Positions 15,523-37,665 of a DNA stretch of 64,000 nucleotides are shown piece by piece (the stretch's first letter is position 1; each line of letters opens with the position of its first letter). The notes below the pieces were generated by a model. It was not told the DNA's origin. It was given only the letters and a program-made list of their open reading frames with translations, and made no database searches. This stretch comes from Candidatus Heimdallarchaeota archaeon (GTDB lineage Archaea > Asgardarchaeota > Heimdallarchaeia > Hodarchaeales > Hodarchaeaceae). The stretch is from positions 2,358,966-2,422,965 of the forward strand of contig CP070695.1 in assembly GCA_020353515.1 (NCBI GenBank), in the 5' to 3' direction. The translations under genes were made by a program, and so were the position numbers.

Positions 15523-16056
15523 TCAGTTGAACTTTCTACCATATTCAAATAAGGTTCCTGCTTGATAGATGTCTAATTGAACTTTTGATAAAGGAGTGGC
15601 AGCTTTCAACGTCTGGTTCTTGGTGAAGTTAACGATTTCTCCAGTTTCTAAGTTAACTTTAATCATGTCACCTGTTTCAATATCCTCATTCATGATTTCT
15701 AGGGAAGTCATAAGAGGCATGCCTGAATTAATGGCATTACGTTTATAGATTGCCCCAAAAGATTCACCAACAATCATTTGGATCCCTAAAGCACGGAAGC
15801 AATCAACTGCTTGTTGTCTACTACTTCCAGCACCAAAATTCTTACCAACAACTAGAATATCACCAGATTTCGCAGTTCTAGAGAATTCTTTCCAGCCTTG
15901 AAGATTTCCAAAAGCATATTGACCCATTTCATCAATATCAGTGATGTGTAAATGTTTATTATGAAAGATCATGTCTGTATCTATATCATCTATCGCTTTT
16001 CCGCTCTCATCCTTTATTATAACAACTCTTCCTTCTAAAATGGTTGGTTTATGCAT
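15523..16056 (-). CDS. Aconitase-family (LeuD/HacB-type) small subunit, copy A
   Basis: DIDTDMIF, GKNFGAGSSRQQA, SFGAIYKRNAIN. Confidence 0.9.
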   Translation of the reverse strand: MHKPTILEGRVVIIKDESGKAIDDIDTDMIFHNKHLHITDIDEMGQYAFGNLQGWKEFSRTAKSGDILVVGKNFGAGSSRQQAVDCFRALGIQMIVGESFGAIYKRNAINSGMPLMTSLEIMNEDIETGDMIKVNLETGEIVNFTKNQTLKAATPLSKVQLDIYQAGTLFEYGRKFN

Positions 16057-16078
16057 TCAAACACCTCTGACAATGTTC

Positions 16079-17344
16079 CTAAATTTCAGGAACCGAGATT
16101 TCACCTGCTAAAGCCGTTGCTGCAGCTGTTGCTGGAGATGCCAAATAAGTGTCTCCGCCTCCTTGTTTTCCAGCAAAGTTACGATTTCCAGTAGAAACTT
16201 GTACCTCACCTTTTCCCGTCATTCCAATTTGACCTGCGGCACATCCACCACACCCTGGGTTCGTGATAATTGCTCCAGCTTCATACAGGACAGTGATCAA
16301 GCCATTCTTTAATAATTGGCCATAAACCTCTTTAGTAGCTGGGACAATCTTTAGCATGACATTTGGATTAATCTTCTTATTTTTGAGAATTCTCGCTACT
16401 AGGGAAATATCTTCATAGCGACCATTAGTACAGCTAGCGATAACTACAGAGTCAACTGGTATTCCTGCAACTTCTGCAACAGGTTTAACATTAGCAGGGG
16501 AAGGTGGTAAAGCAATTAATGGTTCAAGATTAGAAAAATCGAAATTTAATGTTTCGGTATACTCCACATCTACATCTGACTTATAAACAGGAAAATTATT
16601 TCCACTTCGTTCTTTACAATATTTTATAACCTGATCATTGGGAGGAATGAGACCAATTATCCCACCCATTTCAGTAACCATAGATGCAAGAGTAATTCTT
16701 TCAGCTAAATCAAGGGATTCAACAGTATTTCCATAAAATTCTATAGCTTTCCCTAAAGCTCCTTTTGAACCAATCTGTTGAAGAACCCCTAGAGTTACGT
16801 CCTTCGCAAAAGCGTTTGGTTTTGGATTACCCTCAATAGTAATGTTCATTGATTCTGGCACTTCAAACCAAGTTCTACCTGTTTTAAATGTGAAAGCGAT
16901 ATCTTGATCACCCATCCCTTGTCCAAAAGAACCTATAGCTCCAAGAATGTTTAAGTGTGAGTCGGTACCTACAACAGTATTTCCTGGTACAGCAATCCCT
17001 TCCTCTATCATTATATGGGAACCAACTCCAGCATCAACATCATAAAGATGTTCACGAGGGAGGTTTTCACGAGCAAAAACCCGCGCAATATGTTGGTTCT
17101 CTGCATAACCAATGGTTTTAGCTGGGACAACACAGTCAAATGTGAAATAAGTCTTTCTAGGATCCGCTATCTGCGACTCATTTGGGTAATATTTCTCTAA
17201 GTTTTTCACAACGTTGGCCCCACCAAAATCTCGGGCCGTTCGAACGTCGATCTCCATCCAAACAATATTTCCTGGTGCTACATCCTCAGTTGTATGGTTT
17301 GCAATAATTTTTTCAATGATTGTTTTTCCCAATGGCTCAGACAC
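16079..17344 (-). CDS. Aconitase-family (LeuC/HacA-type) large subunit, copy A
   Basis: GKTIIEKI, GTDSH, SCTNGR, PGCGGC, STGNRNF. Confidence 0.92.
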   Translation of the reverse strand: MSEPLGKTIIEKIIANHTTEDVAPGNIVWMEIDVRTARDFGGANVVKNLEKYYPNESQIADPRKTYFTFDCVVPAKTIGYAENQHIARVFARENLPREHLYDVDAGVGSHIMIEEGIAVPGNTVVGTDSHLNILGAIGSFGQGMGDQDIAFTFKTGRTWFEVPESMNITIEGNPKPNAFAKDVTLGVLQQIGSKGALGKAIEFYGNTVESLDLAERITLASMVTEMGGIIGLIPPNDQVIKYCKERSGNNFPVYKSDVDVEYTETLNFDFSNLEPLIALPPSPANVKPVAEVAGIPVDSVVIASCTNGRYEDISLVARILKNKKINPNVMLKIVPATKEVYGQLLKNGLITVLYEAGAIITNPGCGGCAAGQIGMTGKGEVQVSTGNRNFAGKQGGGDTYLASPATAAATALAGEISVPEI

Positions 17345-17538
17345 CCTTTTGATTCTAATACATGGCGTATTCCATAAATGATATTTAATATAATCTTATA
17401 AGTAATTGAAATTACATACCAATAACAATATGATTAAAAACTAACGATTCAAACTAACATATCGAATAATGTAATTCACTTTAAATTTAATGTAAACATC
17501 TAGGAATCACCTCAATAATGAAGTAGGATATTGCAAAG

Positions 17539-17751
17539 ATGACTCTAGGAATCAGTGAAGACGCTGATCTTCATCATAAGGCTGAATTAGAATTGACATG
17601 CCCTTGGTGCCATACTCACACCATTAAGACCACTGTCAATCATGGAACCCTTCGTTTGAAGTGCACTGAATGTAACATGAATGCTTTTGCCACTAGAATC
17701 CCCCGAAATAGGAAATTAGCTGATTATATTTCACGACGATTAATTTCTTGA
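17539..17751 (+). CDS. Small zinc-ribbon protein
   Basis: CPWC-x17-CTEC; ATG start with a purine-rich upstream sequence. Confidence 0.65.
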   Translation: MTLGISEDADLHHKAELELTCPWCHTHTIKTTVNHGTLRLKCTECNMNAFATRIPRNRKLADYISRRLIS

Positions 17752-17887
17752 TTAATACTCTCTTTATTTCCTTCTGTTTTTCATAATTGTATGTATCAAG
17801 AGTGTATACTCTCATTCTGGAATAATGAAGCTAACAACAAAGAATTTAACTCCTCCTACTATTTTCTAGTTCACGAGGATTCTGAGT

Positions 17888-19150
17888 ATGACTGGGCAAA
17901 CATTAATTCAGAAAATTCTTTCACGAGCTGCAGGGAAAGAAAAGGAAGGAGTTGCAGAAAATGAGATCGTTTTTGTTTCCCCTCATATGATTCTTAGTCA
18001 TGACAATTCTGCTGCTATTTCAAAGACCTTTCATCAAATTACTGGATCCGATGGGAAGGTTTGGGATCCAAATAGGATTTTTATTGATTTAGATCACGCT
18101 GTTCCTCCACCCGACTATAAGAAAGCAGAAAATCATAAAATAATCAGAGAATTTGTTAAAAAACAGGGAATAAAACATTTTTATGATTGTGGAACTGGAA
18201 TTTGCCATCAAGTTCTCCCTGAAGAAGGTTTAGTCCCACCAAATGTTGTAATTCTGGGTTCTGATTCTCACACAACAACTCATGGAGCCTTTGGTGCTGC
18301 TGGTATTCCAATAGGTCGTACTGAAACAGCTTCAGTATGGGCAATTGGAGAGACTTGGTTAAAAGTTCCTGAAACGATTAAGATAACCCTTGAAAACTAT
18401 TTACCAAATGATGTTTATGCAAAAGATGTTATTCTAGATATAATTGGTAAAATTTCTGCAGATGGAGCTACATACAAGTCTATTGAATTCTATGGAAAAG
18501 CAGTGGAAAGGATGTCCATAAGTGACCGTATGACTATCAGTAATATGTCAGCAGAGGCAGGAGCAAAAGCTGGAATCTTTCCCGTTGACAATGTGACCAA
18601 TGATTGGAATAAACAGTTTAATATTTCTTATGATAGATTAGCAGCGGATGAAGATGCAAGTTATGAACAAGAACTGAATTTTGATCTTGCAAGTCTGACA
18701 CCACGGGTAGCTCAACCACACAAAGTTGATAATGTTGTTCCTATAGAAGATCTACCAAGAATTAAAATTGACGTTGCTCTTCTTGGGACATGCACCAATG
18801 GCAGGATCGAAGATCTCCGAATTGCTTCCGAAATTTTGAAAGATAAGAAGATAAATCCTAACACTAGACTACTTATTTATCCTGCGTCAAGGAGTACCCT
18901 TAATCAGGCAATAAAAGAAGGGATAATGGAAAACTTAGTTGATGCTGAAGGACAGATAGGTGTCCCTGCTTGTGGGCCATGTCTTGGTGAATACGGAGGT
19001 ACTTTAGCACCAGGAGAAAAGGCCATTTCTACAGCAAATCGTAATTTTAAAGGGAGGATGGGGACAAGGGATGCTGAAATTTACTTGGCAAACCCAGCAG
19101 TTGTTGCCAAATCAGCGATTGCAGGGTATATCACCAATGAGGAGGTTTGA
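17888..19150 (+). CDS. Homoaconitase-like (LeuC/HacA-type) large subunit, copy B
   Basis: SHDNS, LDHAVP, GICHQ, GSDSHT, TCTNGR, ACGPC, STANRNFKGRMG. Confidence 0.92.
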   Translation: MTGQTLIQKILSRAAGKEKEGVAENEIVFVSPHMILSHDNSAAISKTFHQITGSDGKVWDPNRIFIDLDHAVPPPDYKKAENHKIIREFVKKQGIKHFYDCGTGICHQVLPEEGLVPPNVVILGSDSHTTTHGAFGAAGIPIGRTETASVWAIGETWLKVPETIKITLENYLPNDVYAKDVILDIIGKISADGATYKSIEFYGKAVERMSISDRMTISNMSAEAGAKAGIFPVDNVTNDWNKQFNISYDRLAADEDASYEQELNFDLASLTPRVAQPHKVDNVVPIEDLPRIKIDVALLGTCTNGRIEDLRIASEILKDKKINPNTRLLIYPASRSTLNQAIKEGIMENLVDAEGQIGVPACGPCLGEYGGTLAPGEKAISTANRNFKGRMGTRDAEIYLANPAVVAKSAIAGYITNEEV

Positions 19151-19668
19151 AAATGAAATTTACAGGTAAAATATGGATATTCCCAGACGATGACATCAAT
19201 ACTGATGTCATATTCCCAGGAAAATATACTTATGAACCTCTAACTCCAGAACAGATGGCAGAACACGCTATGGAAGATTATCTCCCTAATTTTGCAAAAG
19301 AAGTTACTAAGGGTGACATTATCGTGGCAGGGAAGAACTTTGGTTGTGGTAGCAGCCGTGAACAGGCAGTCATTTGTTTAGCGAAAGCAGGTTTGAGTTG
19401 TATCATTGCAAAGTCTTTCGCACGGATTTTTTATAGAAACGCTATAAATCAAGCCCTACCCCTTGTAATCTCTTTTGACTGCTCTGATTATGTCATACGA
19501 AATAGATATGCACTAAAAGACGGTGAAATTTCCGTAGATTTTGACACAGGTGTCATCAAACTTCAAGATAAAGAATTTCTTTTTCCTAAGCTCGATAGTC
19601 AGGCATTAGAGATCTTTAAAGCTGGAGGATTGGTTGAATATACAAAAAAACGTTTACAATCTCTATGA
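19147..19668 (+). CDS. Homoaconitase-like small subunit, copy B
   Basis: [14 protein letters not shown] and [11 protein letters not shown]; coupled to the large subunit with a GGAGG SD. Confidence 0.92.
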
Positions 19669-19680
19669 GAAACTGCTAGG

Positions 19681-20172
19681 TTGAATGAATCAATGGCTGA
19701 GATTATAGACTCCGAAGAGAAATCTATAAGGAATTCGTTAGGGTTCTATGGCTTAGTATCATTCTTGATCTTTCTTCTTTACACTTTTATAGTCGCATTA
19801 GGATTTTTCATGCTTTTCTCGACTGTTCAATTTGGATTCTTTGAATCAGGTTCATTCTCCGAGTGGAATCTAACTGGTTTTTTTGAGTGGTTATTGTCGT
19901 TTGAGTGGTTTAGTAAGTTCTTAACTGATTCATTGTTCCTGTTGGTGATTTTATACATATATACTATTATCACTTGGATATATGTTTATTATAGTACTGT
20001 TAAGATCGTTTTTTGTGGAGAGAAAGAGAAAGACTGGTCATTAGGATGGTACCTAGGAGGTTGGCTAGCGTTCATCTCGATATTTTTTGTCCCTGCAATT
20101 TTGGCTGTTCAAAACCTTCCTTTTAGAGCGAAGAATGTTCACTACAAATTCCACCTAAATATTCGTTTATAA
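19681..20172 (+). CDS. Hypothetical membrane protein
   Basis: About 3 hydrophobic segments; follows the copy B operon. Confidence 0.65.
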   Translation: MNESMAEIIDSEEKSIRNSLGFYGLVSFLIFLLYTFIVALGFFMLFSTVQFGFFESGSFSEWNLTGFFEWLLSFEWFSKFLTDSLFLLVILYIYTIITWIYVYYSTVKIVFCGEKEKDWSLGWYLGGWLAFISIFFVPAILAVQNLPFRAKNVHYKFHLNIRL

Positions 20173-20254
20173 CAGTGAAATCATTGCATTTTTACCTGAA
20201 TGACGCATCAGATTAGGTCATCCAGTTATAAAAAGCAATATGAAAGAAAATAGT

Positions 20255-21571: not shown

Positions 21572-21729
21572 CAGCCTATGGTTTGCCGTTGTTTAATAAG
21601 AATTAAATAATGATGGTATGTAGGTAATCCTTTTGAGAGACAATAACTCTAAAATAACAATAATTAATTCAGATTAGTAACATTTGAAAGAGTAGGATCT
21701 TGTTTTTTTATTCACTGAATTTCAGGTGA

Positions 21730-21993
21730 ATGATGATGTCAAATCTAAGAATTGAAGTAATTAAGATACTAGAAGCGGGAAAATGTAATTTTGGTCATAA
21801 ACCAGGTGAGACCTTCGATTATCCAGAAGAAAAAGGGAAAATTTGTTCTGCTGCTTGGCATACACTGTATCCTTATCTTAGTGGACTCCAATACGGAGCA
21901 AGCTATCCATGGGAAGAAGATGCCAATAGTATTACCCTGTGTTGTCCTGATTATAAGAATCCTGTAGTATTCAAGATCACACGGATTGAATGA
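21730..21993 (+). CDS. TIGR04076-family small Cys protein
   Basis: GKCNFGHKPGE, ICSAAW, CCPDYKNPVVFKI. Confidence 0.85.
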   Translation: MMMSNLRIEVIKILEAGKCNFGHKPGETFDYPEEKGKICSAAWHTLYPYLSGLQYGASYPWEEDANSITLCCPDYKNPVVFKITRIE

Positions 21994-22064
21994 AGACCAA
22001 AATAGATGCTTCTACATTCATATAGATTTATATTAATCTAATCGCTTAACTACAAAATTCACTA

Positions 22065-22553: not shown

Positions 22554-22683
22554 AAGACTTATTGTTTCTGTAGAGAGTAAAGGGCTTGTGTAAAGAGAAA
22601 ATGGTGTTTTTATGAGGAAAAAAAAGAATGAGAAAAAAAATTGATAATGGGTACTAGAGTTCAACCTAGATAAAATTCATGTC

Positions 22684-24867
22684 TTATTGATAAGGACTAA
22701 TGACCTTAATTACTTCGTCGGAATCGATACCTAATTCTTTAACCTTTGAGAAAGAGGGACAGCCTCGTTTACTCCAGCCTCGACGCTCATACGCGGCATC
22801 TTGAAGTCTAGCATAGTTTTCTTCGCGGTACTTTCGTAAAATTTTCATTTTTTCTTCGGTGGCTTTCCCTGAAGGATCTTCACCAATTTCTTCTTTAATT
22901 TGTTTGTCGTAACGTTCATATCGACTCTCATATTCTTCTTTTGTAACAGGACCCATGGCACGATAGGGGAAATTTGAGTCACTTTCTCTGAGGCCTTTTC
23001 CTTGGCGAACATTGAGAATACGCTGGAAGTTATATACTCGTTCTGACATTTTAATGAGGTCATCAGGTGTTGATTTCCTTCCAGTTACCCCACTGAAGTA
23101 CTCTGCATACCAATTTACATGTTTGGGAATTTTTGCACGAGCATCTGGTAATGTTAATGGTCGTTGAGGGTTCTCAACATTATCGGGTGGCACTACATCG
23201 TTCCACGGTAATTTACATAAACCATTAAGTCCAAACCATGTCCTCCAGAATGGAAACCAGGCTAGAGCTTCAGCTTTATCTTCAAATGTAGGTAAATTAC
23301 CCCTAACCGAATCTTCAAAGATTAACCAGGCTTCATCATGTTGTGGTCCTTTCAATGTTAATCCGTAACCACCCTGTTGGGCTAATGATTCTTTAGTCAC
23401 ATATTCTGAAAATTCAAGTCCTTTATGTTCCATTCCAATATCTTGAAGAAATTGAGGATCCGCACCGTATTTTTCTGCAAATGCTTTCTTCATTTCTACA
23501 ATACCTTGGCCTACAATGACTCCAAATCCCTCACCTTGAGCCATTTGATGCACTAATTCTAATGCTGCTTCAGCATTCCCAAAATTTAGTTCAAGGCCGC
23601 CAGTTATCTCCTTGGTTAAAATTCCTGCTTCATAGCATTCCATCACAAATGCTATTCCAGTTCCTACTGATATGGTATCTAAGCCATAAGCATCACAATA
23701 GAAGTTAGCCTCCAAAACCCATTTTGGATCCCATACACCCCAATTACTACCACATCCAGCTATTGTTTCGTATTCAGGTCCATCTACATTCACTTTTTGT
23801 CCTTTGAAAGGTCCTGAGAGAACAGTATGTCCTTTGGAAATATGGCTGCATGAAATAGTGCATCCAATCCAACAACCATCTGTTCCCTTTCCAGTGTCAG
23901 TATACACATTTCTCATTATTTCTCGTGTGTAAGGGAACTGTTCACCTTTCAATTCTTTATGAGCGCCAAATCGAAAGTTTTCTACTGGAAGAAGATCAAA
24001 ATCATTCATGATCTCTGGGAGATGTCCTGTACCGACCACTCTCATCTCATTTTGTTCTGGATCATTCTTGATGATTTCTAAATTGTGTTTTTTACCCGCA
24101 TTTTTTGCCATATCAAGTTGTACGGGATTATTTATCTTTGAATCGACCTTAGGAGAGCGGCAGACTAAAGCTTTTAGTCGTTTATTTCTAAAAACTGTTC
24201 CAATACCTCCTCTACCAGCCTGCTTACAACTAGCCCATTGACGTTTCTTACTATACCAGGAAAAATTTAAACAACCCCATTTTGAATACTCAGCTCCTTT
24301 TCCTGCGGAAACAACACTCACACGATGTTTTTCTTTATCACTTGAATTCACAGCATACTTCTCTGTTAATTGCTGAGTAAGCAAGTGAGATTCATCTGGA
24401 ATTTTCTCTGCGTCTTCAATTCTGATTGTTCCTTCATCGCTGTTGATGAAAACAACCACGTCATCTTTGGATTTACCCTGAATTTCAATTGCATCAAAAC
24501 CTGAAAATTTAGTGTAGGGGCCAAAGTATCCTCCCACATTACTATCGATGACGATTCCTGTTAAGGGGGAAATTGTTGTAACGATAGATTTCCCTGATCC
24601 TGGATAGAATGTGCTTCCTCCCAAAGGGCCAGAAGCAATACAAATTACGTTTTCAGGATCATCCCATTTAGTTACACGGTCTTTAGGTAAGGAATTCCAC
24701 ATCAACCATAAGTCAAATCCTTTTCCTCCGATGAATTTTTCCTTCATTTCATCGGTAACAGGTTTAATCTGTATTTCATTGGTAGTTAAGTTGATATATA
24801 ATGTTCTATTTGCATAACCTTTTTCAACTGGTCTTAAATCATAAGATAGTTCGTTTAAAATCGCCAT
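22684..24867 (-). CDS. Tungsten-dependent aldehyde:ferredoxin oxidoreductase family protein
   Basis: DSNVGG, AGRGGIG, GCWIGCTISC, DGPEYET, CDAYGLDTIS, GLCKLPW. Confidence 0.95.
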   Translation of the reverse strand: MAILNELSYDLRPVEKGYANRTLYINLTTNEIQIKPVTDEMKEKFIGGKGFDLWLMWNSLPKDRVTKWDDPENVICIASGPLGGSTFYPGSGKSIVTTISPLTGIVIDSNVGGYFGPYTKFSGFDAIEIQGKSKDDVVVFINSDEGTIRIEDAEKIPDESHLLTQQLTEKYAVNSSDKEKHRVSVVSAGKGAEYSKWGCLNFSWYSKKRQWASCKQAGRGGIGTVFRNKRLKALVCRSPKVDSKINNPVQLDMAKNAGKKHNLEIIKNDPEQNEMRVVGTGHLPEIMNDFDLLPVENFRFGAHKELKGEQFPYTREIMRNVYTDTGKGTDGCWIGCTISCSHISKGHTVLSGPFKGQKVNVDGPEYETIAGCGSNWGVWDPKWVLEANFYCDAYGLDTISVGTGIAFVMECYEAGILTKEITGGLELNFGNAEAALELVHQMAQGEGFGVIVGQGIVEMKKAFAEKYGADPQFLQDIGMEHKGLEFSEYVTKESLAQQGGYGLTLKGPQHDEAWLIFEDSVRGNLPTFEDKAEALAWFPFWRTWFGLNGLCKLPWNDVVPPDNVENPQRPLTLPDARAKIPKHVNWYAEYFSGVTGRKSTPDDLIKMSERVYNFQRILNVRQGKGLRESDSNFPYRAMGPVTKEEYESRYERYDKQIKEEIGEDPSGKATEEKMKILRKYREENYARLQDAAYERRGWSKRGCPSFSKVKELGIDSDEVIKVISPYQ

Positions 24868-25805: not shown

Positions 25806-26096
25806 TTAAGGATCTTTTGATCCTCCCCCTACAGGGGGGACGCATGTTATAATGTCCCCGTCCTTTACTTTTTCATCCAGACCATTAAGAGATTCTATAT
25901 CTTTTCCATTTAAAAGTACATGAAAATGACTTTTTATTTTCCCAGTTTCAGAATGAACCATGTGTGCTAGCACGGATTTTCCAATCTGTGTCTCTAATGC
26001 AACTAGAACTTCTCGGATAGAAGTTCCCTCCGCCTGAAAGACCTTTTTTCCACTCCAGCGCTCTAGAGGACCGTAAAAAGTGACTGTAATTGTCAT
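25806..26096 (-). CDS. MoaD/ThiS/SAMP ubiquitin-like protein
   Basis: VLLNGKDI...DGD.I...PPVGGG followed by SKDP. Confidence 0.9.
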   Translation of the reverse strand: MTITVTFYGPLERWSGKKVFQAEGTSIREVLVALETQIGKSVLAHMVHSETGKIKSHFHVLLNGKDIESLNGLDEKVKDGDIITCVPPVGGGSKDP

Positions 26097-26137: not shown

Positions 26138-27265
26138 TTAAGTCATTTTCTTTACGACTTCTTCAGCTACTTCTAGTGTGGTATTAGAACCACCCATATC
26201 ATAAGTTCTTACTCTCTCTTCCTTTATAACGGTAGAAATTCCTTCTTCAATATTTTTTGCTATTTTTAGAAGGGAAGGATCACCCTTAGCGCCTAACCAA
26301 TCTAACATAAGTTTTACAGATAAGAATGCAGCAGTTGGATTTACCTTATACTGGCCAGCATATTTCGGTGCAGATCCATGAGTTGGTTCGAAAAGTCCAT
26401 AAACATCTCCATTTGACGATGCACTAGATGCAAATCCTAATCCTCCTACTAATTGAGCAGCAAGGTCGCTTATAATGTCACCAAACATATTTGTGGTAAC
26501 CATCACTCCATAATCTTGAGGATTTTTAATTAACCACATACACATTGCATCTATGTTTGTTTCCCACATTTCTACTTCGGGATAATCTTTAGCTACTTCA
26601 AAGGCGATTCGTCGAAACATACCACACGTCTGTCGGATAACATTAGCTTTATGTATCACAGTCACGGTTGGGTATCCAAATTTTTTTGCATAATCGAATG
26701 CTGTGACTAAAATTCTACGACAACCTTTTTCAGTAAATACACGGACAGAAGCAGTGGATTTTTCAGGATTAAATTTCTTAAATTTCTCTAGTGAGGCGAG
26801 CTGTTTGAATTCTTCCCCACTATCGTATTCAATTCCTATATAAAGACCTTCAGTGTTCTCTCTAAATGTTATCAGGTCAATATCATCCCTATAATTGAGT
26901 GGATTACCTGGATATGCCTTGGTAGGGCGCATATTAGAGTACAAGTCGAAAATCTGTCGTAAACGGACAATTGGCGAGCGATATGGGATTCCGAACTTCT
27001 GAACTGTCTTAACTACTTCTGGATCTGTTGTTGAACGGGAAGTAATTGCTCCAAATAGAGCAGCGTCAGTTTCTTTCATTCCCTCAACTGTCCTGTCAGG
27101 GAGAGGATCTCCTTCAGCTTTGAAAATATCAAACCCAATATCTAGTGGGATATATTCCGCATCAAAGTTAGTTGCGTCAAGGACAATTCGGGCAGCCTCT
27201 AAAACATCATTACCTATTCCATCACCAGGCATATACGCAATCTTGTATTTAGTCATAAATTCCAC
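26138..27265 (-). CDS. Beta-decarboxylating dehydrogenase, homoisocitrate-dehydrogenase-like
   Basis: PGDGIG, FGAITS, YRSPIVRLRQ, RENTEGLY, HKANV, NMFGDIISD, EPTHGSAP. Confidence 0.92.
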   Translation of the reverse strand: MEFMTKYKIAYMPGDGIGNDVLEAARIVLDATNFDAEYIPLDIGFDIFKAEGDPLPDRTVEGMKETDAALFGAITSRSTTDPEVVKTVQKFGIPYRSPIVRLRQIFDLYSNMRPTKAYPGNPLNYRDDIDLITFRENTEGLYIGIEYDSGEEFKQLASLEKFKKFNPEKSTASVRVFTEKGCRRILVTAFDYAKKFGYPTVTVIHKANVIRQTCGMFRRIAFEVAKDYPEVEMWETNIDAMCMWLIKNPQDYGVMVTTNMFGDIISDLAAQLVGGLGFASSASSNGDVYGLFEPTHGSAPKYAGQYKVNPTAAFLSVKLMLDWLGAKGDPSLLKIAKNIEEGISTVIKEERVRTYDMGGSNTTLEVAEEVVKKMT

Positions 27266-27829
27266 CTATTTTGATTCTAGTGAGATTTTTAACGGACCAA
27301 AATGTAAAAAATCGCAACGATGTACAATTTCACCTTCGATAGTTCGTCCAGGTCCTTTATCTCCTTCCCAAGAGTGTTGATAAATGTTTTGTACGACGTC
27401 AAATGGAAGCTCGTGTTTCATCGCTAATCCTGCTCCAGTAATAGGGTGTCTAAGTTTGTTTCCAACATTTGATTTCACTACTTCTCCACTCGATGTCAAA
27501 GCAAATTCGAGTGGCTTTCCTATATCATGAAGAATTGCACTCGCAACAAGAATATCATGGTTCACAGGAATTCCTTGTTTTTCTAGTATAGACGCAGATT
27601 GAAGGGCTAAGTCTGTCACGATTCTGACATGGTCAACAAAAGGTACCTTTACACCAGGAATAACAAGGGTAAATGGAAAATCCATGTTCTTCCATCCATT
27701 TCCATCATTACCCATTTTTAGAGCTTCAACACATACATCTATCACTTTCTGTCTCAATGTATTGTCTGAAATCTGCGCTAACTGGTTTGAGAAGACTTCT
27801 TGCACATAATCATCCAATGTTTTCACCAA
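27266..27829 (-). CDS. HD (HDIG) domain phosphohydrolase
   Basis: H...LHDIGK...RH...HS...D metal ligands; abuts the dehydrogenase gene. Confidence 0.88.
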   Translation of the reverse strand: MVKTLDDYVQEVFSNQLAQISDNTLRQKVIDVCVEALKMGNDGNGWKNMDFPFTLVIPGVKVPFVDHVRIVTDLALQSASILEKQGIPVNHDILVASAILHDIGKPLEFALTSSGEVVKSNVGNKLRHPITGAGLAMKHELPFDVVQNIYQHSWEGDKGPGRTIEGEIVHRCDFLHFGPLKISLESK

Positions 27830-30206: not shown

Positions 30207-32078
30207 CTACTTTCGTCGCTTAATGATCACTGAGACAGCAGCGACTAACACCAACGCTGGAATAATGGAGAAACCTGGAGTAGGAAGTCCACCACCGTCT
30301 CCATCTTCGCCTTCGGTGTCTTTAGGTAATTTTGTTGGATCAGGAATATTATCGATATCTTTGTTGACAATTTCAGCGTTGAATTCTATTTGGATAGACC
30401 CATCATCGTATATAGGTTCGTACTCATAGGTTTCCTCGTTCCATTCTGAGCCAAATGGGAATTCTTCGAACATGGCATCCAACAAAAGATCAATACCCAT
30501 GCTAACAATCAAACCCTTTGTAGTATATCCGAGCCACATTTCGATTGTAGCAGTGACTTCTACATAAGGTTCCTCAGGATCCTCGGATGGCCACTCAGCT
30601 GCTTGTGTAGAATCAAAAACTACGTCAAGTTCACCGGTGAAATAGAAGAACTTGTATTCATTATTTCCACGGATTTCATAAGTAACATCGAGTTTATCAA
30701 GGGTGATTCCTATATCACCTAACGCATCCTCAGCTTCAGAAGCCGTTACTGCTTCCTCTAGAAGCTCTACAATAGATGAAATGGTTAATGTAGAGGCTTG
30801 CCACATATCCCAATCAGGTGTGATACCAGGAGCGATAAGGGGGATGATGCCATTCGATGAAAACGGATATAATTGCCAGTTTCGGTAGGGGCCTGACGAC
30901 CATTCGCCATAATCGTAACAGGGAGAACCGATGAAACCATTCCACCACAAGGGTTCTTCCATCTGTTCAAGATTATTTCCATCGTAAACTGAGACATCAG
31001 TCTCATAGAAGCATCCGTCTACATCAGTAACTTCAAATTCGAAAATATCCTCGCCATCAGCATCATCAATTGTATCCTGCATCTCGTCTAGCTGATCTTT
31101 GAAATCTTGATGCGCGTCAAACCAACCCTCTGGTGTATAATCGAATGTAGCTTCAGCCATCTCGAGAGTGATTGTTTCTTCGTCTAAGATTTCATCTGGA
31201 AGAGGATTGTGTCTCTTACTCTCAAAGGCTACTTCAACATTCATCTCAACATTTGTCTCGTCTCCAATATCTCCATCGAAACTACCTGTTACTCGTTTGA
31301 AAACTCCTGCATGATCTCCAGATGCAAACCATGCGACTTCAAGAGTGATATCAGCATCAATTTCAGGACCACCAACTGGTTCAGGATAATACACTGAGGT
31401 CTCTTCAGTCCACCACCAAGGTTCTGTAGTTGTGTATTCAGTGGTGTATTCGAGCTCAGCCCCCTCACCAACGTGTCCTTCAATTGTAACTATGAATTCA
31501 CCTTCTTTTTCTTCAGTTGTGAGGTCAACACCTGCATCTTCTAATTGTTCAGCAAGTTCATCGAATAAGTCATCCTCATACTGAGACCACTCGTTAGCAT
31601 CAAGATAGAATGGTAATCCAGCATATTGTCCATCAAAGTCCTCAGCGATAAATTCTAGAAAATCACTACCAGGGATAGGTGTTCCGATACCCATACCAAC
31701 GCCCTTAGGAATAATAAATGCATCACCAAAAATTTCTTCAACATCAGGGGTAAGAGATTCTTCAGGGATAGGAATCTCAATGCTTCTTCCTAAAACAACA
31801 TAAGCATTTAGGGCATAAAAACCATCATTTGCATCAACTGCCATTACTTTTACGCCAAGAGTACTACCTGCAAGATCCAATACAAAATCTTCCATTGGAA
31901 AAGGTGCTTCCATTCCTCCTAGCAAGTCCTCCCAAGGGACGTCGAATTCTGTTACCTCATATATAAAGGTGTCACCAGGTTCCATGACATCTTCATCTAC
32001 CTCGGCAATCCCTATTGATGGGACTAATAATAGCAAGAAGATACTGATTGCTATCATAAATGAAAATTTTTTTCTCAT
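30207..32078 (-). CDS. Acidic cell-surface protein with a PGF-type C-terminal sorting signal
   Basis: Signal peptide MRKKFSFMIAISIFLLLLVPSIGIA, D/E-rich body, and a Gly linker + TPGF + TM + KRRK tail. Confidence 0.88.
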   Translation of the reverse strand: MRKKFSFMIAISIFLLLLVPSIGIAEVDEDVMEPGDTFIYEVTEFDVPWEDLLGGMEAPFPMEDFVLDLAGSTLGVKVMAVDANDGFYALNAYVVLGRSIEIPIPEESLTPDVEEIFGDAFIIPKGVGMGIGTPIPGSDFLEFIAEDFDGQYAGLPFYLDANEWSQYEDDLFDELAEQLEDAGVDLTTEEKEGEFIVTIEGHVGEGAELEYTTEYTTTEPWWWTEETSVYYPEPVGGPEIDADITLEVAWFASGDHAGVFKRVTGSFDGDIGDETNVEMNVEVAFESKRHNPLPDEILDEETITLEMAEATFDYTPEGWFDAHQDFKDQLDEMQDTIDDADGEDIFEFEVTDVDGCFYETDVSVYDGNNLEQMEEPLWWNGFIGSPCYDYGEWSSGPYRNWQLYPFSSNGIIPLIAPGITPDWDMWQASTLTISSIVELLEEAVTASEAEDALGDIGITLDKLDVTYEIRGNNEYKFFYFTGELDVVFDSTQAAEWPSEDPEEPYVEVTATIEMWLGYTTKGLIVSMGIDLLLDAMFEEFPFGSEWNEETYEYEPIYDDGSIQIEFNAEIVNKDIDNIPDPTKLPKDTEGEDGDGGGLPTPGFSIIPALVLVAAVSVIIKRRK

Positions 32079-32228
32079 TCTTGTTTCCTCGTTTTTTAAG
32101 AAGTCTTTATTGAATAAAGATTCAGGTACAATTTCTAATTATCAAAAAATATAAGAGTTTCCAAATGGTAACACGAAAAATATATTCTAAAATGGATTTA
32201 CCATTCATTCAAATTTCTGATATTGATT

Positions 32229-32870
32229 TTATTCGACTGCTACATGATCAATTTCTCCTAATTTAACTCGTCCTATGAGAAAGAGTAACCAGCTTGGTAA
32301 GAGGAGAATCATACTAAAAGCAGATTGAAGATATAAGTCGCTTCCTATTATCGCAAAAACTACTCCTATAAAGAGAGTAACATGTTGAATTAATCTAATA
32401 TTTGGTTTAAGAACAAAAAAATACCGACTATAAGAAATTAGAATCAGAACTATTCCTATTAACAAAAAGGTTATGAATGAGTTATTGGAAAACCAATTAG
32501 GATATAAAAAATACATTAGAAATAATAATTCAGCAAAAACAATGCTTAGGAAACTCCCTACGCATCCAGAACAAATAGAATGCTCTCCAAGCTGAAATTC
32601 ATGATCAACTTGTAATGGAGGAGGATGATGATTGAGGTCAATTCTACAGCTAGGAAACAATCCTGAAAAGGAGAATTGAAAATGAAGGAGTCTAGGAATA
32701 ATCGATAATCCTGCAAACATAAACATTCCAATTAAAAATTGCCGTGTGATCCAATCCTCATCCAAGGGACTTGAAATATCTCGAGTCAGAATTGTAGCTA
32801 TGCAGATACTGACTATCAACACGGAAAAGGGAGTACCGATAATCAAGGCTTTTTTTATAGCAGTATTCAA
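32229..32870 (-). CDS. Membrane protein, DUF2085-like
   Basis: C...H.F.LG...ICSGCVG between TM helices. Confidence 0.6.
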   Translation of the reverse strand: MNTAIKKALIIGTPFSVLIVSICIATILTRDISSPLDEDWITRQFLIGMFMFAGLSIIPRLLHFQFSFSGLFPSCRIDLNHHPPPLQVDHEFQLGEHSICSGCVGSFLSIVFAELLFLMYFLYPNWFSNNSFITFLLIGIVLILISYSRYFFVLKPNIRLIQHVTLFIGVVFAIIGSDLYLQSAFSMILLLPSWLLFLIGRVKLGEIDHVAVE

Positions 32871-32981
32871 AAGGAAGCACCTATGAATTGATGTTCAGTT
32901 AGGTTGAGGAAGAAATTTAAAACTACCTAAGAACTTATGCTGTTTTAGTGAATTCAGACTAGTTCCCTCGAGATGAGTTAA

Positions 32982-33977
32982 GTGAAATTCATGGTTACAG
33001 GTGGTAGTGGTTTCGTAGGGAGTCACATTGTTGATGCTTTAGAAAAACATTTTCCTCCCTCAAGCATATCACTAATTGTTCGTAATCCAACGAAAGTAAA
33101 AATACGATCAGAGGCAGGAATTACTGTTTTTCAAGGGGATATTACTAATCTTGAATCATTACACCGTGTTATGACAGATTTTCGTCCTAATGTTGTAATT
33201 CATGCCGCAGCACTGGCAGATGATTGGGCTCCCCTCTCAAAATTGATGGAGACAAATGCTCAAGGTACTCAAAATATAATTGATGCAATGGTTCAATCAT
33301 GTACAGCTGATTTGCTGATTCACATTTCTTCCTCAGGAGTTTATCCTAGAAAAACTTCTGTTCATTTAGCTGAAGATACTCCATATGGGCCATATGGTGA
33401 TTACCATAAATCTAAAGTAGCTGCGGAAGAGATAGTCAAGGCTACAATGGAAAAGAGACTTGTAAATACTACAATAATACGCCCACCCAACGTTATGGGA
33501 ATTAGAGATTTCACACATATGGCAAGAATATGTCAGGCCATTAAAAAAAGGAAATTTCCCATTATAAATGAAGGTAAGGCCATTCAGACATGGGTAGCTG
33601 CAGAGGATTTAGCACAAGCAGTCATTCTTGCTATAAACCTGCAAAAAAAGGCAAGTGGTCAAATATATAATGTTAAATCATTTGAAATATCTGTGAAAGA
33701 ACTTTACAATCAAATTGCGTCAAGATTAAACATTACAAAACCTCCCAAAAAATATTCTTACCGTTTAGCATATATCGGAGGATTTATTTCAGAAATTATT
33801 GGAAAATTAAAACAAAAACCCTCTACTCTTAATCGTTACCGTGTTATCAAATTTGGTAAGGATCGCCTTTTTGATGATTCAAAAATTCGTTCTGAGCTGA
33901 ATTATCAACCTATAGCGTCAGCAAAAGATACAATCGCAGACACGGTGACATGGCTACAAAAAGAAGGAATAGTATGA
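32982..33977 (+). CDS. NAD-dependent epimerase/dehydratase (3-beta-HSD-like extended SDR)
   Basis: TGGSGFVG, HAAA, YHKSK, IIRP. Confidence 0.92.
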   Translation: MKFMVTGGSGFVGSHIVDALEKHFPPSSISLIVRNPTKVKIRSEAGITVFQGDITNLESLHRVMTDFRPNVVIHAAALADDWAPLSKLMETNAQGTQNIIDAMVQSCTADLLIHISSSGVYPRKTSVHLAEDTPYGPYGDYHKSKVAAEEIVKATMEKRLVNTTIIRPPNVMGIRDFTHMARICQAIKKRKFPIINEGKAIQTWVAAEDLAQAVILAINLQKKASGQIYNVKSFEISVKELYNQIASRLNITKPPKKYSYRLAYIGGFISEIIGKLKQKPSTLNRYRVIKFGKDRLFDDSKIRSELNYQPIASAKDTIADTVTWLQKEGIV

Positions 33978-33990
33978 TTGATGTGAGTTT

Positions 33991-34488
33991 ATGGAAGCAA
34001 GATACATCATTAGAACATTATGTTATGCGCTAGAGAATCAAGTACGTTTTGTTACCAATGATTTAAATGATGAGGATCTACGGTGGAGATCTGATATTGG
34101 ATCTCCAGCCATCGGATGGATAGTAGGTCATGTATTGGTTGGACATGATATGATTGCTAGTCATCGGTTTTGTGGAAATGCAATAATCCTCTCTGAAGAG
34201 TATAGTACCAACTTTGGAATGGGTACTAATGGAGATTTTCCTGAACCTTTCACTTTAGATGATCTTTTTATTAAATTTAAACAGGTAAATGGGAAAATAA
34301 CTAAAGTTCTGAGTGATAAAAATGATAAGTGGCTTGAAGAATTTTATGATGACTCTGGATTCCCTCCAAATTGGCAAAATAAAAATATCGGAAAAGCGTT
34401 CATTTTGCATTTTAACCATCAATTTACCCATACAGGGCAAATCTTAGAAATCAGACGAATGCGGGGTCGAGGAGCATGGGGGTTTTAA
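33991..34488 (+). CDS. DinB-family protein
   Basis: IGWIVGH and HQFTHTGQI metal-triad pattern. Confidence 0.85.
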   Translation: MEARYIIRTLCYALENQVRFVTNDLNDEDLRWRSDIGSPAIGWIVGHVLVGHDMIASHRFCGNAIILSEEYSTNFGMGTNGDFPEPFTLDDLFIKFKQVNGKITKVLSDKNDKWLEEFYDDSGFPPNWQNKNIGKAFILHFNHQFTHTGQILEIRRMRGRGAWGF

Positions 34489-34508
34489 TAGCTTTGTAAA
34501 TTCTAAAG

Positions 34509-35543
34509 ATGAGGAATTTGGACCAGAAGATTGCGAGAATTGTCAATGTGGAATGGATAGCTCAAGAACTACAACAAAAGTTTGAAACTACTGGACCATT
34601 AATTGAGGTTGTTGTTGATATCGTTCCAAAAACTATCCAGGTGAAGAAAGAAGCTTACAAACCGTCCCACTATCTTATTATCCAAGGGTCTTTCGATCCT
34701 CCTACTTCATCGCATATAAATCTTATTTCAAAAGCAATTTATCTTCACTCTAAACTCTATGCGTCAAACAAAATTAAAGTTTTACTCCTACTCTCGCTTT
34801 CTCATGTTGATAAAAGAATAGATGTCTTAAATCGCTCATTATTAGGTTATAGAGTCGAAATGCTAGAAAATTTATATTCTTCTCTTAAGATAAAAACCCC
34901 CATTTCGATTGGTTTGTCAAATGTGGCCCGATACATTGATTTAATTGATGCTATTCGGCAATTTTTTCCTAAAATAGAAAAATTATCATTTGTTATGGGG
35001 ATGGACGTCTTTAAGAAACTTCTGGATGCTTCTTACTACTCAAAGCCTGTCGAAGAAGTGTTACATCTGATTTTTAGAGCTAATTACTATATTGCAGGTA
35101 GAAGGGACGTTTTTTCAAAAAAAGAATTTGATACATTCCTCAATAAACATTTACACCAGAAATATCACCAATACGTTCATTTCTTATCTTTATCAAAATC
35201 CTATAGATTTCTAAATGCGACATCAATTCGAGAAAAATATTCTAATGATCAACCCATTCAGGAATTGTATACTCACTCCACGATAATTAAATATTTGAAA
35301 AAGAATAATATATACCGTCTAACACCAAAATGGATTGCAACGAAAATCGCAATCCATTTAGTTGTCCAATTGACATTAGAATCAGGTAAAGATCAAATAA
35401 TAGCAATTAAGATCTTGAGACAGTTGTTACCTGAAATTGAAAGAAAACCTGATTTGCAACAACAACTAATTAATGACTACAAATCCAAAAAAACAGAAGA
35501 AATTTCCAAGAGATGGAACCAATTAATCAACCTAATTTCGTAA
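34509..35543 (+). CDS. Nicotinamide/nicotinate-nucleotide adenylyltransferase-like protein
   Basis: GSFDPPTSSH, HVDK, FVMGMD, YY, NATSIR. Confidence 0.8.
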   Translation: MRNLDQKIARIVNVEWIAQELQQKFETTGPLIEVVVDIVPKTIQVKKEAYKPSHYLIIQGSFDPPTSSHINLISKAIYLHSKLYASNKIKVLLLLSLSHVDKRIDVLNRSLLGYRVEMLENLYSSLKIKTPISIGLSNVARYIDLIDAIRQFFPKIEKLSFVMGMDVFKKLLDASYYSKPVEEVLHLIFRANYYIAGRRDVFSKKEFDTFLNKHLHQKYHQYVHFLSLSKSYRFLNATSIREKYSNDQPIQELYTHSTIIKYLKKNNIYRLTPKWIATKIAIHLVVQLTLESGKDQIIAIKILRQLLPEIERKPDLQQQLINDYKSKKTEEISKRWNQLINLIS

Positions 35544-36124
35544 AAGAACTCCAAGAAATAATAGATGGGGTATTTGATCCAATAAAATCTACATATGCAA
35601 TTTCTTACGGATTACTCCACGCATATACCAAGAGGTATATCATTCCATTACTTCATAAAAATGATTTAACAATAGCAACCGTAGAACTAACTACATGTGG
35701 TCTAATAAGTGATCTACTTACAGGATCAAGTGGTGCCTCACACATATTTATTCTAGGGATGATCCCCTACTCAAATGAAATGAAAATTAAATTAGGAATA
35801 GAAGATGAGGATTTATCATTTGGAGGATATGGAGTTGCTTCTCCAGAGACAGCTAAGCAACTAGCAGAGCGAATAAGAGAGTTTTCTGGAGCTAATATTG
35901 GTCTTGCAGAAACAGGTTTAATATCATCATCAGAATTAGAAAAGAGAAGAACAGAAAAAAAAGCTGGAGAAGTGTATACAGCGATTTCTTTTCACGAAGA
36001 GGTTTTAGTAACAAGGTTATCAATCCAAGAGGATCTAAAAAGAAGAGAAATGCGTCAAGAAATAGCTTACCGTGTTTTACAGTTTCTAGGAGATTTTTTG
36101 AAAACTCAGGTAACTGATGACTAA
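35513..36124 (+). CDS. CinA/PncC (NMN deamidase)-like protein
   Basis: TIATVELTTCGLI, SGAS, YSNEMK, GVASPETA, GLAETG. Confidence 0.85.
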   Translation: MEPINQPNFVKELQEIIDGVFDPIKSTYAISYGLLHAYTKRYIIPLLHKNDLTIATVELTTCGLISDLLTGSSGASHIFILGMIPYSNEMKIKLGIEDEDLSFGGYGVASPETAKQLAERIREFSGANIGLAETGLISSSELEKRRTEKKAGEVYTAISFHEEVLVTRLSIQEDLKRREMRQEIAYRVLQFLGDFLKTQVTDD

Positions 36125-37665
36125 TTGTTTACCTCATAGACAACATCAAGTAACGTTCCATCACGATATTCTACAACTGTGCAAATTTCATCTGTGAATT
36201 CTAGTTCTGGTGGTGCAGCTTGACTATAAGCCATATCCTTTAATTCAGTGATATCTGTTATTTCAATCCCTCCTTTTGATAACATATTTCTTAACTTAAC
36301 TCTTTTTGGATTTACAGCTATCCCAGCATCTGTTATCAAGACATCAATCATTTCACCTGGAGTTGAAACAGTTGTGACCCGATCTCGTACAATCGGCACC
36401 TTCCTAGCAATTGGACAGGTAATAATTGTTAATTGAGCAGCTGCGGCATCAGTATGACCTCCGATACCGTGAAGTAACAAACCATCAGAATGTGTATTAA
36501 CATTTACATTGAAATCTACGTCAATTTCAGTTGCTCCAAGGGCGACCACATCTACATAATGAGCAAGAGGACCACCAGGGGCCCAAATATTATAGGAATT
36601 TTGAGCAGACCATTCATAATGACAAGGATTTTCTCGTAAGGATTTCGCAGCAACAAGGTCAAAGGATTGTCCATCAAAGATCTTTCTGACTAACCCTTCC
36701 TCTAACAACTTAACTGCGGCTCCTGTAGTTCCCCCATGAATAAAAGATCCTTGAATTTCTCTTTCAATCATTATTTCGTGGAGGAATTGGGTTGTGCCAA
36801 GAGAAACCCCCCCTGCTCCTGCTTGAAATGACATCCCCTCTTTCACATAACCAGCTGCTTCAGCTACTTTTACTACTTGTTCTGCAATTTCTAAATGACG
36901 ATCAGTAACATTTCTGCCGAGAGAGCCCGCAACTATCTTTTTCGGATCTCCAATACGATCTACTGTTACTATATAGTCAACTTTATCGCCTCTTATGCTT
37001 ACAGGATAAACAGGTTCGTCTGTCAATAGATTATCAGTAACTAAAACGACTTTATCAGCGTAAATAGAATCAGTCTCATTAGCAAAACCACAGGCCCCAT
37101 AAGCAGAGGGTCCTTGACATCCATTCATATTACCCATTTCATCCACCGCAGGAGCAGCTATGAAAGAAACGTCAAGATGAAGTTCTCCGCATTCTACAGC
37201 GCGTGCTCGACCCCCGTGCGAACGTAAACTGGTTGGAATGTTTAATTCTCCTGTCGAAACAGCTTTTCCAATAGGACCATTCATCGATCCAGAAATACAG
37301 CTAATTACTCCTGAATGAATATGTTCAATGAGAGGTTCGTGATTAGGAAATAAAGCAGTAGATGCTATAGTTAAATTCTTGTAACCCATACTCGCTATTG
37401 TGTCCATCACCTCACAGATAACAAAATCGCCGTATCTGAGGTTGTGGATAAAGCCAATGGTCATACCATCACTGAGATTGACCTTGGAGATTACCTGTTC
37501 TAAATCATCAAATATTCGTTTTGTTTTAGTTGTAGTAATGTATGGAGAGTACTTACGACCGATTTTAGATCCTTTAGGTGCCGTTGAATATGCTCCTGCG
37601 TAAGGGATATATTTTCTTCCGAAGATTTTTTCTGGGACATTTCTTCTAACTGCGTTTATTACCAT
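36121..37665 (-). CDS. citF: Citrate lyase alpha chain (citrate CoA/ACP-transferase)
   Basis: DGMTIGFIHNLRYGD, RSHGGRARA, SFQAGAGG, EIDVDFNVNV, GGHTD, VEYRDGT. Confidence 0.9.
   Translation of the reverse strand: MVINAVRRNVPEKIFGRKYIPYAGAYSTAPKGSKIGRKYSPYITTTKTKRIFDDLEQVISKVNLSDGMTIGFIHNLRYGDFVICEVMDTIASMGYKNLTIASTALFPNHEPLIEHIHSGVISCISGSMNGPIGKAVSTGELNIPTSLRSHGGRARAVECGELHLDVSFIAAPAVDEMGNMNGCQGPSAYGACGFANETDSIYADKVVLVTDNLLTDEPVYPVSIRGDKVDYIVTVDRIGDPKKIVAGSLGRNVTDRHLEIAEQVVKVAEAAGYVKEGMSFQAGAGGVSLGTTQFLHEIMIEREIQGSFIHGGTTGAAVKLLEEGLVRKIFDGQSFDLVAAKSLRENPCHYEWSAQNSYNIWAPGGPLAHYVDVVALGATEIDVDFNVNVNTHSDGLLLHGIGGHTDAAAAQLTIITCPIARKVPIVRDRVTTVSTPGEMIDVLITDAGIAVNPKRVKLRNMLSKGGIEITDITELKDMAYSQAAPPELEFTDEICTVVEYRDGTLLDVVYEVNN

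Follow-up and report, generated by a model that had tools for sequence, protein, structure and literature searches.

Window genes for two aconitase-type pairs, a dehydrogenase and an HD protein as probable parts of a conserved module with an ATP-citrate lyase-like enzyme in a Heimdallarchaeota genome

Introduction

Do the genes for two aconitase-type heterodimers, a beta-decarboxylating dehydrogenase, an HD-domain protein and a citrate-lyase alpha chain, all found in one 64,000-nucleotide stretch of a Candidatus Heimdallarchaeota archaeon genome, belong to a single pathway? The stretch (hereafter the window; C1:2358966-2422965) comes from a genome assembled as a single contig of 4.94 Mb and 96% complete, coded G000. 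We refer to the heterodimers as pairs A and B (each with a large LeuC and a small LeuD subunit), to the dehydrogenase as DH, to the HD-domain protein as HD and to the alpha chain as CitF1. A preliminary description of the window had joined them all in a (homo)citrate pathway in which citrate lyase acts in place of a synthase. Our comparison across genomes suggests that pairs A and B, DH and HD are probably dispersed parts of one conserved module, and that its lyase-type member is an ATP-citrate lyase (ACL)-like enzyme encoded outside the window, here called ACL-II.

Results

A shared operon in archaea and bacteria

LeuC-A was used to search 121 Asgard genomes, and the neighbourhoods of the matches were read. 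In two genomes of the Heimdall family f2 (G003 and G097), genes for HD, DH, LeuC-A, LeuD-A, a fused LeuCD protein of the B type (617-633 aa), a 437-aa protein and a 714-aa protein follow one another on one strand, and every gene of this operon has one gene of the source genome as its reciprocal best match. LeuC-B is 45-48% identical to the fused B gene, and the DH orthologues inside the operon are at 54-57% identity. The 437-aa and 714-aa proteins match the genes for the beta and alpha subunits of ACL-II (Table 1). A comparable arrangement is found in Borrarchaeum (G041 and G058), where HD, LeuC-A and LeuD-A and, further along, DH, ACL-II beta and ACL-II alpha share one neighbourhood. A PALP gene in the Borrarchaeum cluster was considered as a further member and rejected: it is cysteine-synthase-like and highly conserved, it runs in the opposite direction to the module genes, and in the source genome it lies elsewhere.

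A search of a species-representative genome collection with an alignment of ACL-II alpha fetched 80 loci, 54 of which have at least 7 kb of upstream sequence and were used for gene counts. HD adjoins the ACL-II region in 43 of the 54, A is likewise present in 43/54, B in 31/54 and DH in 28/54, and all four occur together at 26 loci. The loci belong to Heimdall, Hod and Borr archaea and to genomes with labels including Planctomycetota, Gemmatimonadota, Polyangiaceae, Aminicenantes, Eubacteriales and Thermoplasmatota. The gene order varies among lineages: HD (the first gene), DH, A, B (fused) and ACL-II in Heimdall archaea; DH, HD, A (fused), B and ACL-II in several bacterial phyla; HD, A (fused) and ACL-II in Aminicenantes and Eubacteriales; and HD and ACL-II in Thermoplasmatota. 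Some genes also travel together without ACL-II, namely A, HD and an Iso_dh-family gene in an Odinarchaeia metagenome-assembled genome (MAG), and A co-located with HD in an Anaerolineae MAG. At three bacterial loci, the genes for the alpha and beta subunits of a 2-oxoacid:ferredoxin oxidoreductase lie directly upstream of the module, and a clustering of all flanking open reading frames (ORFs) of the 80 loci revealed no other cross-lineage neighbour.

The functional link among A, B, DH and HD is thus well supported by their occurrence as one co-oriented operon in many other genomes. The linkage proposed in the preliminary description therefore holds for these genes, which do cluster in both archaea and bacteria, and it probably does not extend to CitF1; the f2 and Borrarchaeum genomes with the complete module gave no CitF match.

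Two side observations concern the composition of these loci. In two Thermoplasmatota-type MAGs, genes for the large and small subunits of aconitase X lie upstream of HD and ACL-II, directly adjacent in one (L025) and about 1.7 kb away in the other (L091), and take the place that the LeuCD-type pair A has elsewhere. In an Anaerolineae MAG (L095), HD and pair A are separated by an insertion that carries a reverse transcriptase and bAvd pair, of the sort seen in diversity-generating retroelements, and a NACHT/FGE-sulfatase protein.

The lyase-type member, ACL-II

ACL-II occupies C1:4060075-4063499 of the source genome, 1.64 Mb past the window's end. Its closest relatives are succinyl-CoA synthetase subunits and the citryl-CoA lyase (CCL) of Hydrogenobacter. 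The alpha subunit scores 192 bits against succinyl-CoA synthetase and 115 and 100 bits against ACL and citryl-CoA synthetase (CCS), and the beta subunit scores 159 bits against succinyl-CoA synthetase and 70 bits against ACL/CCS. The C-terminal part of the alpha subunit aligns across the whole of an archaeal citrate synthase and keeps HGGA, GHR..DPR, NVD and R..G..AH; the first three motifs align to both citrate synthase and CCL, and we take them to hold the catalytic His/His/Asp of a citrate-synthase-fold lyase. The beta subunit lacks the Citrate_bind domain (PF16114), which the canonical AclB of the same genome has at 264 bits, and no NCBIfam model reaches its cut-off on ACL-II. The idea of a lyase in place of a synthase survives in part: the module has a C-C lyase-type partner and no HMGL-family synthase, but this partner is ACL-like and presumably ATP-dependent, not a citrate lyase.

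The HMGL family (LeuA, CimA, homocitrate synthase and Re-citrate synthase) has no match anywhere in the source genome, and no synthase of this family was found in any of the sampled f2 Heimdall genomes (9/9). LysW has no match in the source genome, nor in the f2 genomes G003 and G097. The lack of LeuA, homocitrate synthase and lysW, described earlier for the window, is therefore a property of the whole genome. Because the source genome has no LysW route, the suggested role in lysine catabolism or synthesis is unsupported, and the two f2 genomes give it no more support. As for ketol-acid reductoisomerase (KARI), the source genome has weak KARI-like matches only; two tandem 369-aa frames outside the window with weak KARI_C matches (52-57 bits) are its only IlvC-like genes. 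It does encode a canonical citrate set, in which AclB, AclA and isocitrate dehydrogenase (ICDH) cluster beside a fused aconitase. AcnA and two citrate synthases are encoded as well, and there is a further CitF gene (CitF2).

Pairs A and B

The two LeuCD-type pairs share only ~35% identity and are for this reason non-redundant, as had been proposed. Compared with the isopropylmalate isomerase (IPMI) of M. jannaschii (4kp1), LeuC-A has FDC for FDH, GSH for CHQ, GKQG for GRQG and ARD for VHD, and the three cluster cysteines are kept. These substitutions are retained in ~41/43 of the A-type orthologues in modules, archaeal and bacterial alike. The histidine of the D-H motif, which is a cysteine in pair A, is presumably the catalytic acid of aconitase. 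In pair B, all catalytic motifs of aconitase and IPMI are canonical (D-H, C-H-Q, D-S-H, R..R and the cluster cysteines).

Neither pair reaches the curated models of the known isomerases. On LEU2, with its cut-off at 610.65 bits, A reaches 362 and B 445; on leud (cut-off 245.85) they reach 113 and 149, and on HacA_Meth (cut-off 550) 341 and 459. The HacB models give at most 156, below their cut-off of 230. In this family, the recognition loop of the small subunit sets the substrate (PMC7308503). LeuD-A has the GSSR motif and a loop, KHLHIT, unlike those of IPMI and homoaconitase (HACN); LeuD-B has GKYTYE (KYTYEP), which fits the module consensus GKYTYT. The reference loops RYLVY (IPMI), PYLRT (HACN, 2pkp) and RYNLT (P. 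horikoshii) differ from both. Orthologues of A are publicly annotated as 3-isopropylmalate dehydratase or homoaconitate hydratase. Judging from its residues, however, pair A is not an ordinary isopropylmalate isomerase, and the possibility, raised in the preliminary description, that it works as one beside a LeuA is very improbable given the cysteine in place of the histidine, the missed LEU2 and leud cut-offs and the lack of any HMGL match.

DH and HD

DH falls below every NCBIfam equivalog cut-off; the best model is AksF2 (329.9 against 540), and AksF and PRK08997 give 276.5 against 500 and 267 against 510. Its best PDB matches are NAD-isocitrate dehydrogenases at 217 bits, and the Thermus homoisocitrate dehydrogenase (HICDH), at 213 bits, is equally near. 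The motif YRSPIVRLRQ had been read as HICDH-like; the likeness exists, but it is weaker evidence than claimed, since the motif is as close to YRSVNVTLRQ of NAD-ICDH as to any HICDH. The signature Y-x-S-P-I-V of the module orthologues keeps the ICDH serine and has Ile for Asn in all of them, and the source genome's own ICDH keeps S-A-N. The S-x-N substrate motif of ICDH is assumed here to be Ser113/Asn115 of E. coli. For comparison with HICDH we took Arg85 of the Thermus enzyme as the marker residue; the aligned position in DH is Val100, with Arg at position 101.

HD has the conserved pattern H...HD...RHP...H..EG...H..DF, with H67, H101-D102, H128, H152 and D173 invariant. Its AlphaFold2 model is an all-helical HD fold with a predicted local distance difference test score (pLDDT) of 93.5. 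A fold search returned generic HD folds only (best YhaM, 1xx7 and PgpH), and neither this search nor the Atlas yielded an informative structural neighbour. HD had been thought to service the prosthetic group of a lyase acyl carrier protein (ACP); as described below, the components on which it would act were not found.

CitF genes

CitF1 passes the TIGR01584 cut-off of 501.45 bits, and its paralogue CitF2 (52% identity) falls just below it. Among the 121 Asgard genomes, CitF matches are confined to this genus and one f4 genome (G092), where citE and citF are neighbours and an unannotated 91-aa ORF comes before them. The citrate-lyase partners expected elsewhere in the source genome were not located: CitE (PF03328) and CitD (PF06857) have no match in it, and CitG (PF01874) and CitX (PF03802) have none in it or in five genus-mates, CitC not having been searched. 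CitF as the lyase partner thus gives way to an ACL-like enzyme. In the genus-mates G107 and G119, CitF1, an unannotated 129-aa ORF and AcnA lie on one strand in surroundings syntenic with the window; in the source genome, AcnA is 1.5 Mb away from CitF1. We describe CitF1 as an orphan, carrier-free transferase.

CitF2 converges on ACL-II at seven Hod-clade loci. In the source genome it ends an operon with the alpha subunit of indolepyruvate:ferredoxin oxidoreductase (IorA), a 4HBT thioesterase and IorB, and this operon converges on ACL-II there and at five close Hod-clade loci with oxidoreductase genes. The aryl-pyruvate oxidation genes around it suggest that CitF2 acts as a CoA-transferase in a role without relation to citrate. 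In an Undinarchaeales MAG, the gene after ACL-II, in the same orientation, is of the CitF type. In G107 and G119, where no full ACL-II was found, CitF2 and a stand-alone citryl-CoA lyase gene are ~2 kb apart on either side of a housekeeping GTPase gene. Such a link between CitF and a lyase is only suggestive, and it concerns CitF2 more than the CitF1 of the window.

Genes of the window and their surroundings

All seven genes named in the preliminary description are intact ORFs with strong family matches, and its gene calls and coordinates are borne out (Table 1). The ORFs of LeuC-B and LeuD-B share 4 nt, HD directly abuts DH on the same strand, and pairs A and B are divergent with a 543-bp gap between them. 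The intervening genes belong to unrelated families, namely DUF362/ferredoxin, tungsten aldehyde oxidoreductase, ThiS-like, Rce1-like, epimerase, DinB, CinA and ZIP transporter.

Table 1. Positions of the module genes, the CitF genes and neighbouring features. Plain positions are those of the window; C1 is the contig of the source genome and L numbers denote loci.
Feature	Position	Strand	Family matches and remarks
LeuD-A	15523..16056	-	small (swivel) subunit of pair A; Aconitase_C; LEUD_arch 136 bits
LeuC-A	16079..17344	-	large subunit of pair A; Aconitase PF00330, 273 bits
LeuC-B	17888..19150	+	large subunit of pair B; PF00330 328 bits; IPMI_arch 496 bits
LeuD-B	19147..19668	+	small subunit of pair B; LEUD_arch 174 bits
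DH	26138..27265	-	beta-decarboxylating dehydrogenase, Iso_dh family; PF00180 287 bits
HD	27266..27829	-	HD-domain metal-dependent hydrolase-like; PF01966 and HDIG matches
CitF1	36121..37665	-	citrate-lyase alpha-type CoA/ACP transferase; TIGR01584 529.9 bits
ACL-II beta	C1:4062213-4063499		SucC-like; ATP-grasp_2 and Ligase_CoA only
ACL-II alpha	C1:4060075-4062216		SucD-like fused to a full-length citrate-synthase fold; CoA_binding, Ligase_CoA and Citrate_synt
CitF2	C1:4058522-4060066		TIGR01584 497.8 bits
IorA-thioesterase-IorB-CitF2 operon	L001 3380-8067 (C1:4055379-4060066)		source genome
CitF1-129-aa ORF-AcnA run	L012 4193-9025		G119; one strand; AcnA 896 aa
CitF1-129-aa ORF-AcnA run	L013 7021-11787		G107; one strand; AcnA 896 aa
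PcrB/GGGP-synthase-family gene	14705-15475	+	beside LeuD-A
70-aa ORF	17539-17751	+	Zn-ribbon-like, two CxxC pairs
163-aa ORF	19681-20172	+	very hydrophobic, Trp/Phe-rich; no Pfam/NCBIfam match
Aldehyde:ferredoxin oxidoreductase	22684-24867	-	tungsten type
ThiS/MoaD-like gene	25806-26096	-	96 aa
623-aa protein	30207-32078	-	no Pfam match
213-aa protein	32229-32870	-	no Pfam match
Tandem KARI_C frames	C1:2478976-2480418		369 aa each
Aconitase X genes	L025 488-2127		Thermoplasmatota-type MAG
Aconitase X genes	L091 4925-6489		Thermoplasmatota-type MAG
Insertion between HD and pair A	L095 2136-9898		Anaerolineae MAG

Several neighbours of the module genes in the window are worth recording. The ThiS/MoaD-like gene shares the strand of DH, begins 41 nt downstream of it and may be co-transcribed with HD and DH, and the tungsten-type aldehyde:ferredoxin oxidoreductase gene lies 1 kb past it. 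The 163-aa hydrophobic ORF begins 12 nt after LeuD-B and was not found behind LeuD-B in G119. The 70-aa Zn-ribbon-like ORF inside the gap between A and B was dropped as a candidate part of the module, as the ORF that occupies this position in G119 is not similar to it. Upstream of the PcrB/GGGP-synthase-family gene are PHP-domain and weak DHHA1-like genes, and this neighbourhood beside LeuD-A is also kept in G119. Paralogous or orthologous copies of the 623-aa and 213-aa proteins flank CitF1 in G107 and G119.

Discussion

Proposed reactions and substrates

Beyond the observed gene identities, synteny, active-site substitutions and genome-wide absences, we infer every reaction and substrate of the module. 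ACL-II would catalyse the reversible reaction ATP + CoA + tertiary hydroxy-tricarboxylate <-> acetyl-CoA + 2-oxo-dicarboxylate. Pair B would isomerise the hydroxy acid via a cis-unsaturated intermediate, pair A would perform a step on the ACL-II side that the canonical enzyme does not carry out, and DH would oxidatively decarboxylate the secondary-alcohol isomer or, in the other direction, carboxylate reductively; HD could be a metal-dependent accessory. With citrate as the acid, the module would be an ATP-coupled entry to or exit from a branch of the tricarboxylic acid (TCA) cycle.

Citrate, isocitrate and 2-oxoglutarate are the most likely substrate set and are slightly favoured, at about an even chance or slightly less. 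In four f2 genomes (88-95% complete), the module genes are the only matches to the Aconitase, Iso_dh and Citrate_synt families. The 2-oxoacid oxidoreductase genes upstream of some bacterial modules and the oxaloacetate-type motifs of the lyase point in the same direction. The relation between the module and citrate synthase within the class is mixed, the module standing alone in f2 and coexisting with citrate synthase in f27 and f1, and two complete f2 genomes have neither.

Several observations weigh against a single module acting on citrate. Its parts are split over four places in the source genome, and in the genus-mates G107 and G119, which do have A and B, neither DH (E <= 1e-60) nor a full ACL-II was found. 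A search of the regions that precede A, B, HD, ACL-II beta, IorA and CitF1 gave no shared motif beyond chance; TATTCGATAAAT, the 12-mer with the widest occurrence (<=2 mismatches), is in 5/6 of them and shuffled sequences reach 4-6, and there is therefore no evidence of co-regulation. No paper on this operon in Asgard archaea was found in the literature. Because the canonical citrate set is already present in the source genome, with AclB, AclA, ICDH, the aconitase cluster, AcnA and two citrate synthases, a citrate-level module would be redundant there. DH lacks the ICDH asparagine that the genome's own ICDH keeps, and its best models are of HICDH type, if below cut-off. Moreover, citrate is prochiral and should need no two aconitase-type enzymes, and a citrate-level pathway leaves the roles of HD and A unexplained.

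Alternative readings

The same module could also work one carbon longer, interconverting acetyl-CoA + 2-oxoglutarate with homocitrate, homoaconitate, homoisocitrate and 2-oxoadipate, with A acting on the enantiomer that a Si-type citrate-synthase-fold enzyme makes; the chemistry would be that of the preliminary description, with ACL-II and not CitF as the lyase. We consider this homocitrate series unlikely, though it has real attractions: DH scores best on AksF2 (330 bits) in the absence of the ICDH asparagine, the full canonical citrate set coexists in the source genome, and a chiral substrate would account for a divergent dehydratase that always travels with ACL-II. Fungi indeed use two aconitase-family enzymes for the isomerisation of homocitrate (PMC3556520). 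Against it, the module provides the sole citrate synthase, aconitase and ICDH candidates in the four f2 genomes, and the motifs of its citrate-synthase-fold domain are patterned like those of enzymes that use oxaloacetate. No curated HICDH or HACN model reaches its cut-off, LeuD-B lacks the arginine of the HACN loop PYLRT, and DH has Val where the Thermus HICDH has Arg85. Since LysW is lacking in G000, G003 and G097, there is also no known route from 2-oxoadipate to lysine. Other 2-substituted malates take up what remains of the probability for the substrate.

A wider conjecture, which we hold only tentatively and think doubtful, is that the module represents a third way to extend or shorten 2-oxoacids by one carbon, beside the routes of the LeuA/homocitrate synthase type and of the citrate synthase type. 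An ATP-coupled Si-type ligase-lyase of citrate-synthase fold would form or split a chiral 2-substituted malate such as homocitrate, the Cys-type pair A would, with help from HD, act on the enantiomer that is out of reach of canonical LeuCD enzymes, and in this genus a CitF-type CoA-transferase could take over the ATP-dependent activation step.

The pathway as originally described, with CitF1 as the lyase component for A, B and DH and with HD maintaining the ACP prosthetic group, is improbable. CitF1 does lie 8.9 kb from the HD and DH genes in the source genome and in G062, a CitF paralogue adjoins ACL-II at the seven Hod-clade loci, and the Undinarchaeales gene and the pairing of CitF2 with a citryl-CoA lyase gene in G107 and G119 might be cited in its favour. 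But CitF alone is a transferase and not a lyase, the partners CitE, CitD, CitG and CitX were not found, and CitF itself was not found in the f2 and Borrarchaeum module genomes. Furthermore, the operon partner of CitF1 in genus-mates is AcnA, and those of CitF2 in the source genome are the indolepyruvate oxidoreductase subunits and a thioesterase.

Finally, that these are ordinary enzymes of leucine/isoleucine synthesis (LeuCD, LeuB) or of coenzyme-B-type chain elongation in a meaningless neighbourhood is very improbable, for although A orthologues carry such public annotations and the broad archaeal IPMI/HACN subfamily models are passed by B and by the small subunits, the genome has no LeuA, CimA or homocitrate synthase and weak KARI-like matches only, pair A lacks the catalytic histidine, no equivalog cut-off of LEU2, leud or HacA is reached, and the operon that includes ACL-II and HD is kept in archaea and bacteria alike.

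Implications

Genes of the module are routinely annotated as leucine or lysine biosynthesis, which would misdirect attempts to reconstruct metabolism in Asgard archaea and in many anaerobes not yet in culture. The components are all small, soluble proteins and are thereby open to expression and assay. If citrate is the substrate, the module would be an independently assembled ATP-citrate lyase system that could save ATP in citrate synthesis or drive a reductive branch, and in some Heimdall archaea it would be the only route to 2-oxoglutarate. If another acid is the substrate, the pathway would be new. Either way, pair A represents a widespread aconitase-family lineage with a cysteine in place of the catalytic histidine.

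Comparison with known systems

ACL (AclB/AclA; PDB 6hxj and 6hxi) is built like ACL-II from an ATP-grasp subunit and a second subunit in which a CoA-ligase/phospho-His part and a lyase of citrate-synthase fold are joined, and CCS and CCL of Hydrogenobacter thermophilus (6hxq and 6hxp) have the same parts. ACL-II differs from ACL and CCS in that both of its subunits are nearer to succinyl-CoA synthetase, from type I ACL in that its beta subunit lacks the citrate-binding domain PF16114, and from CCL in that its lyase part has a full-size citrate-synthase fold where that of CCL is short. The 'type II ACL' of Magnetococcus, postulated and unassayed (PMC6783814), is also among the closest known systems. 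With the citrate lyase system (CitDEF with CitC, CitG and CitX), the common element is CitF1, which passes the citF equivalog model; it differs in that CitD, CitE, CitG and CitX were not found in the source genome, and the related G092 has a citE-citF pair.

The LeuA-LeuCD-LeuB pathway and the pathway of homocitrate synthase, homoaconitase and HICDH (alpha-aminoadipate and coenzyme B) share with the module a LeuCD-type Fe-S hydro-lyase and an Iso_dh-family dehydrogenase. They rely on an HMGL-family synthase, whereas the predicted condensing or cleaving enzyme here has a citrate-synthase fold and is ATP-coupled; in addition, pair A carries Cys where the catalytic His would be, and the recognition loops of the module fit neither IPMI nor HACN. 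A further likeness is offered by the methylcitrate cycle with AcnD/PrpF, in which the product of a citrate-synthase-family enzyme cannot be dehydrated by ordinary aconitase, and a specialised dehydratase with an accessory protein acts before a canonical hydration. The cycle sets a precedent for an aconitase-family dehydratase that is specialised and needs an accessory protein; it proceeds to a lyase where the module has a dehydrogenase, and pair A is of the LeuCD type and not of the AcnA type.

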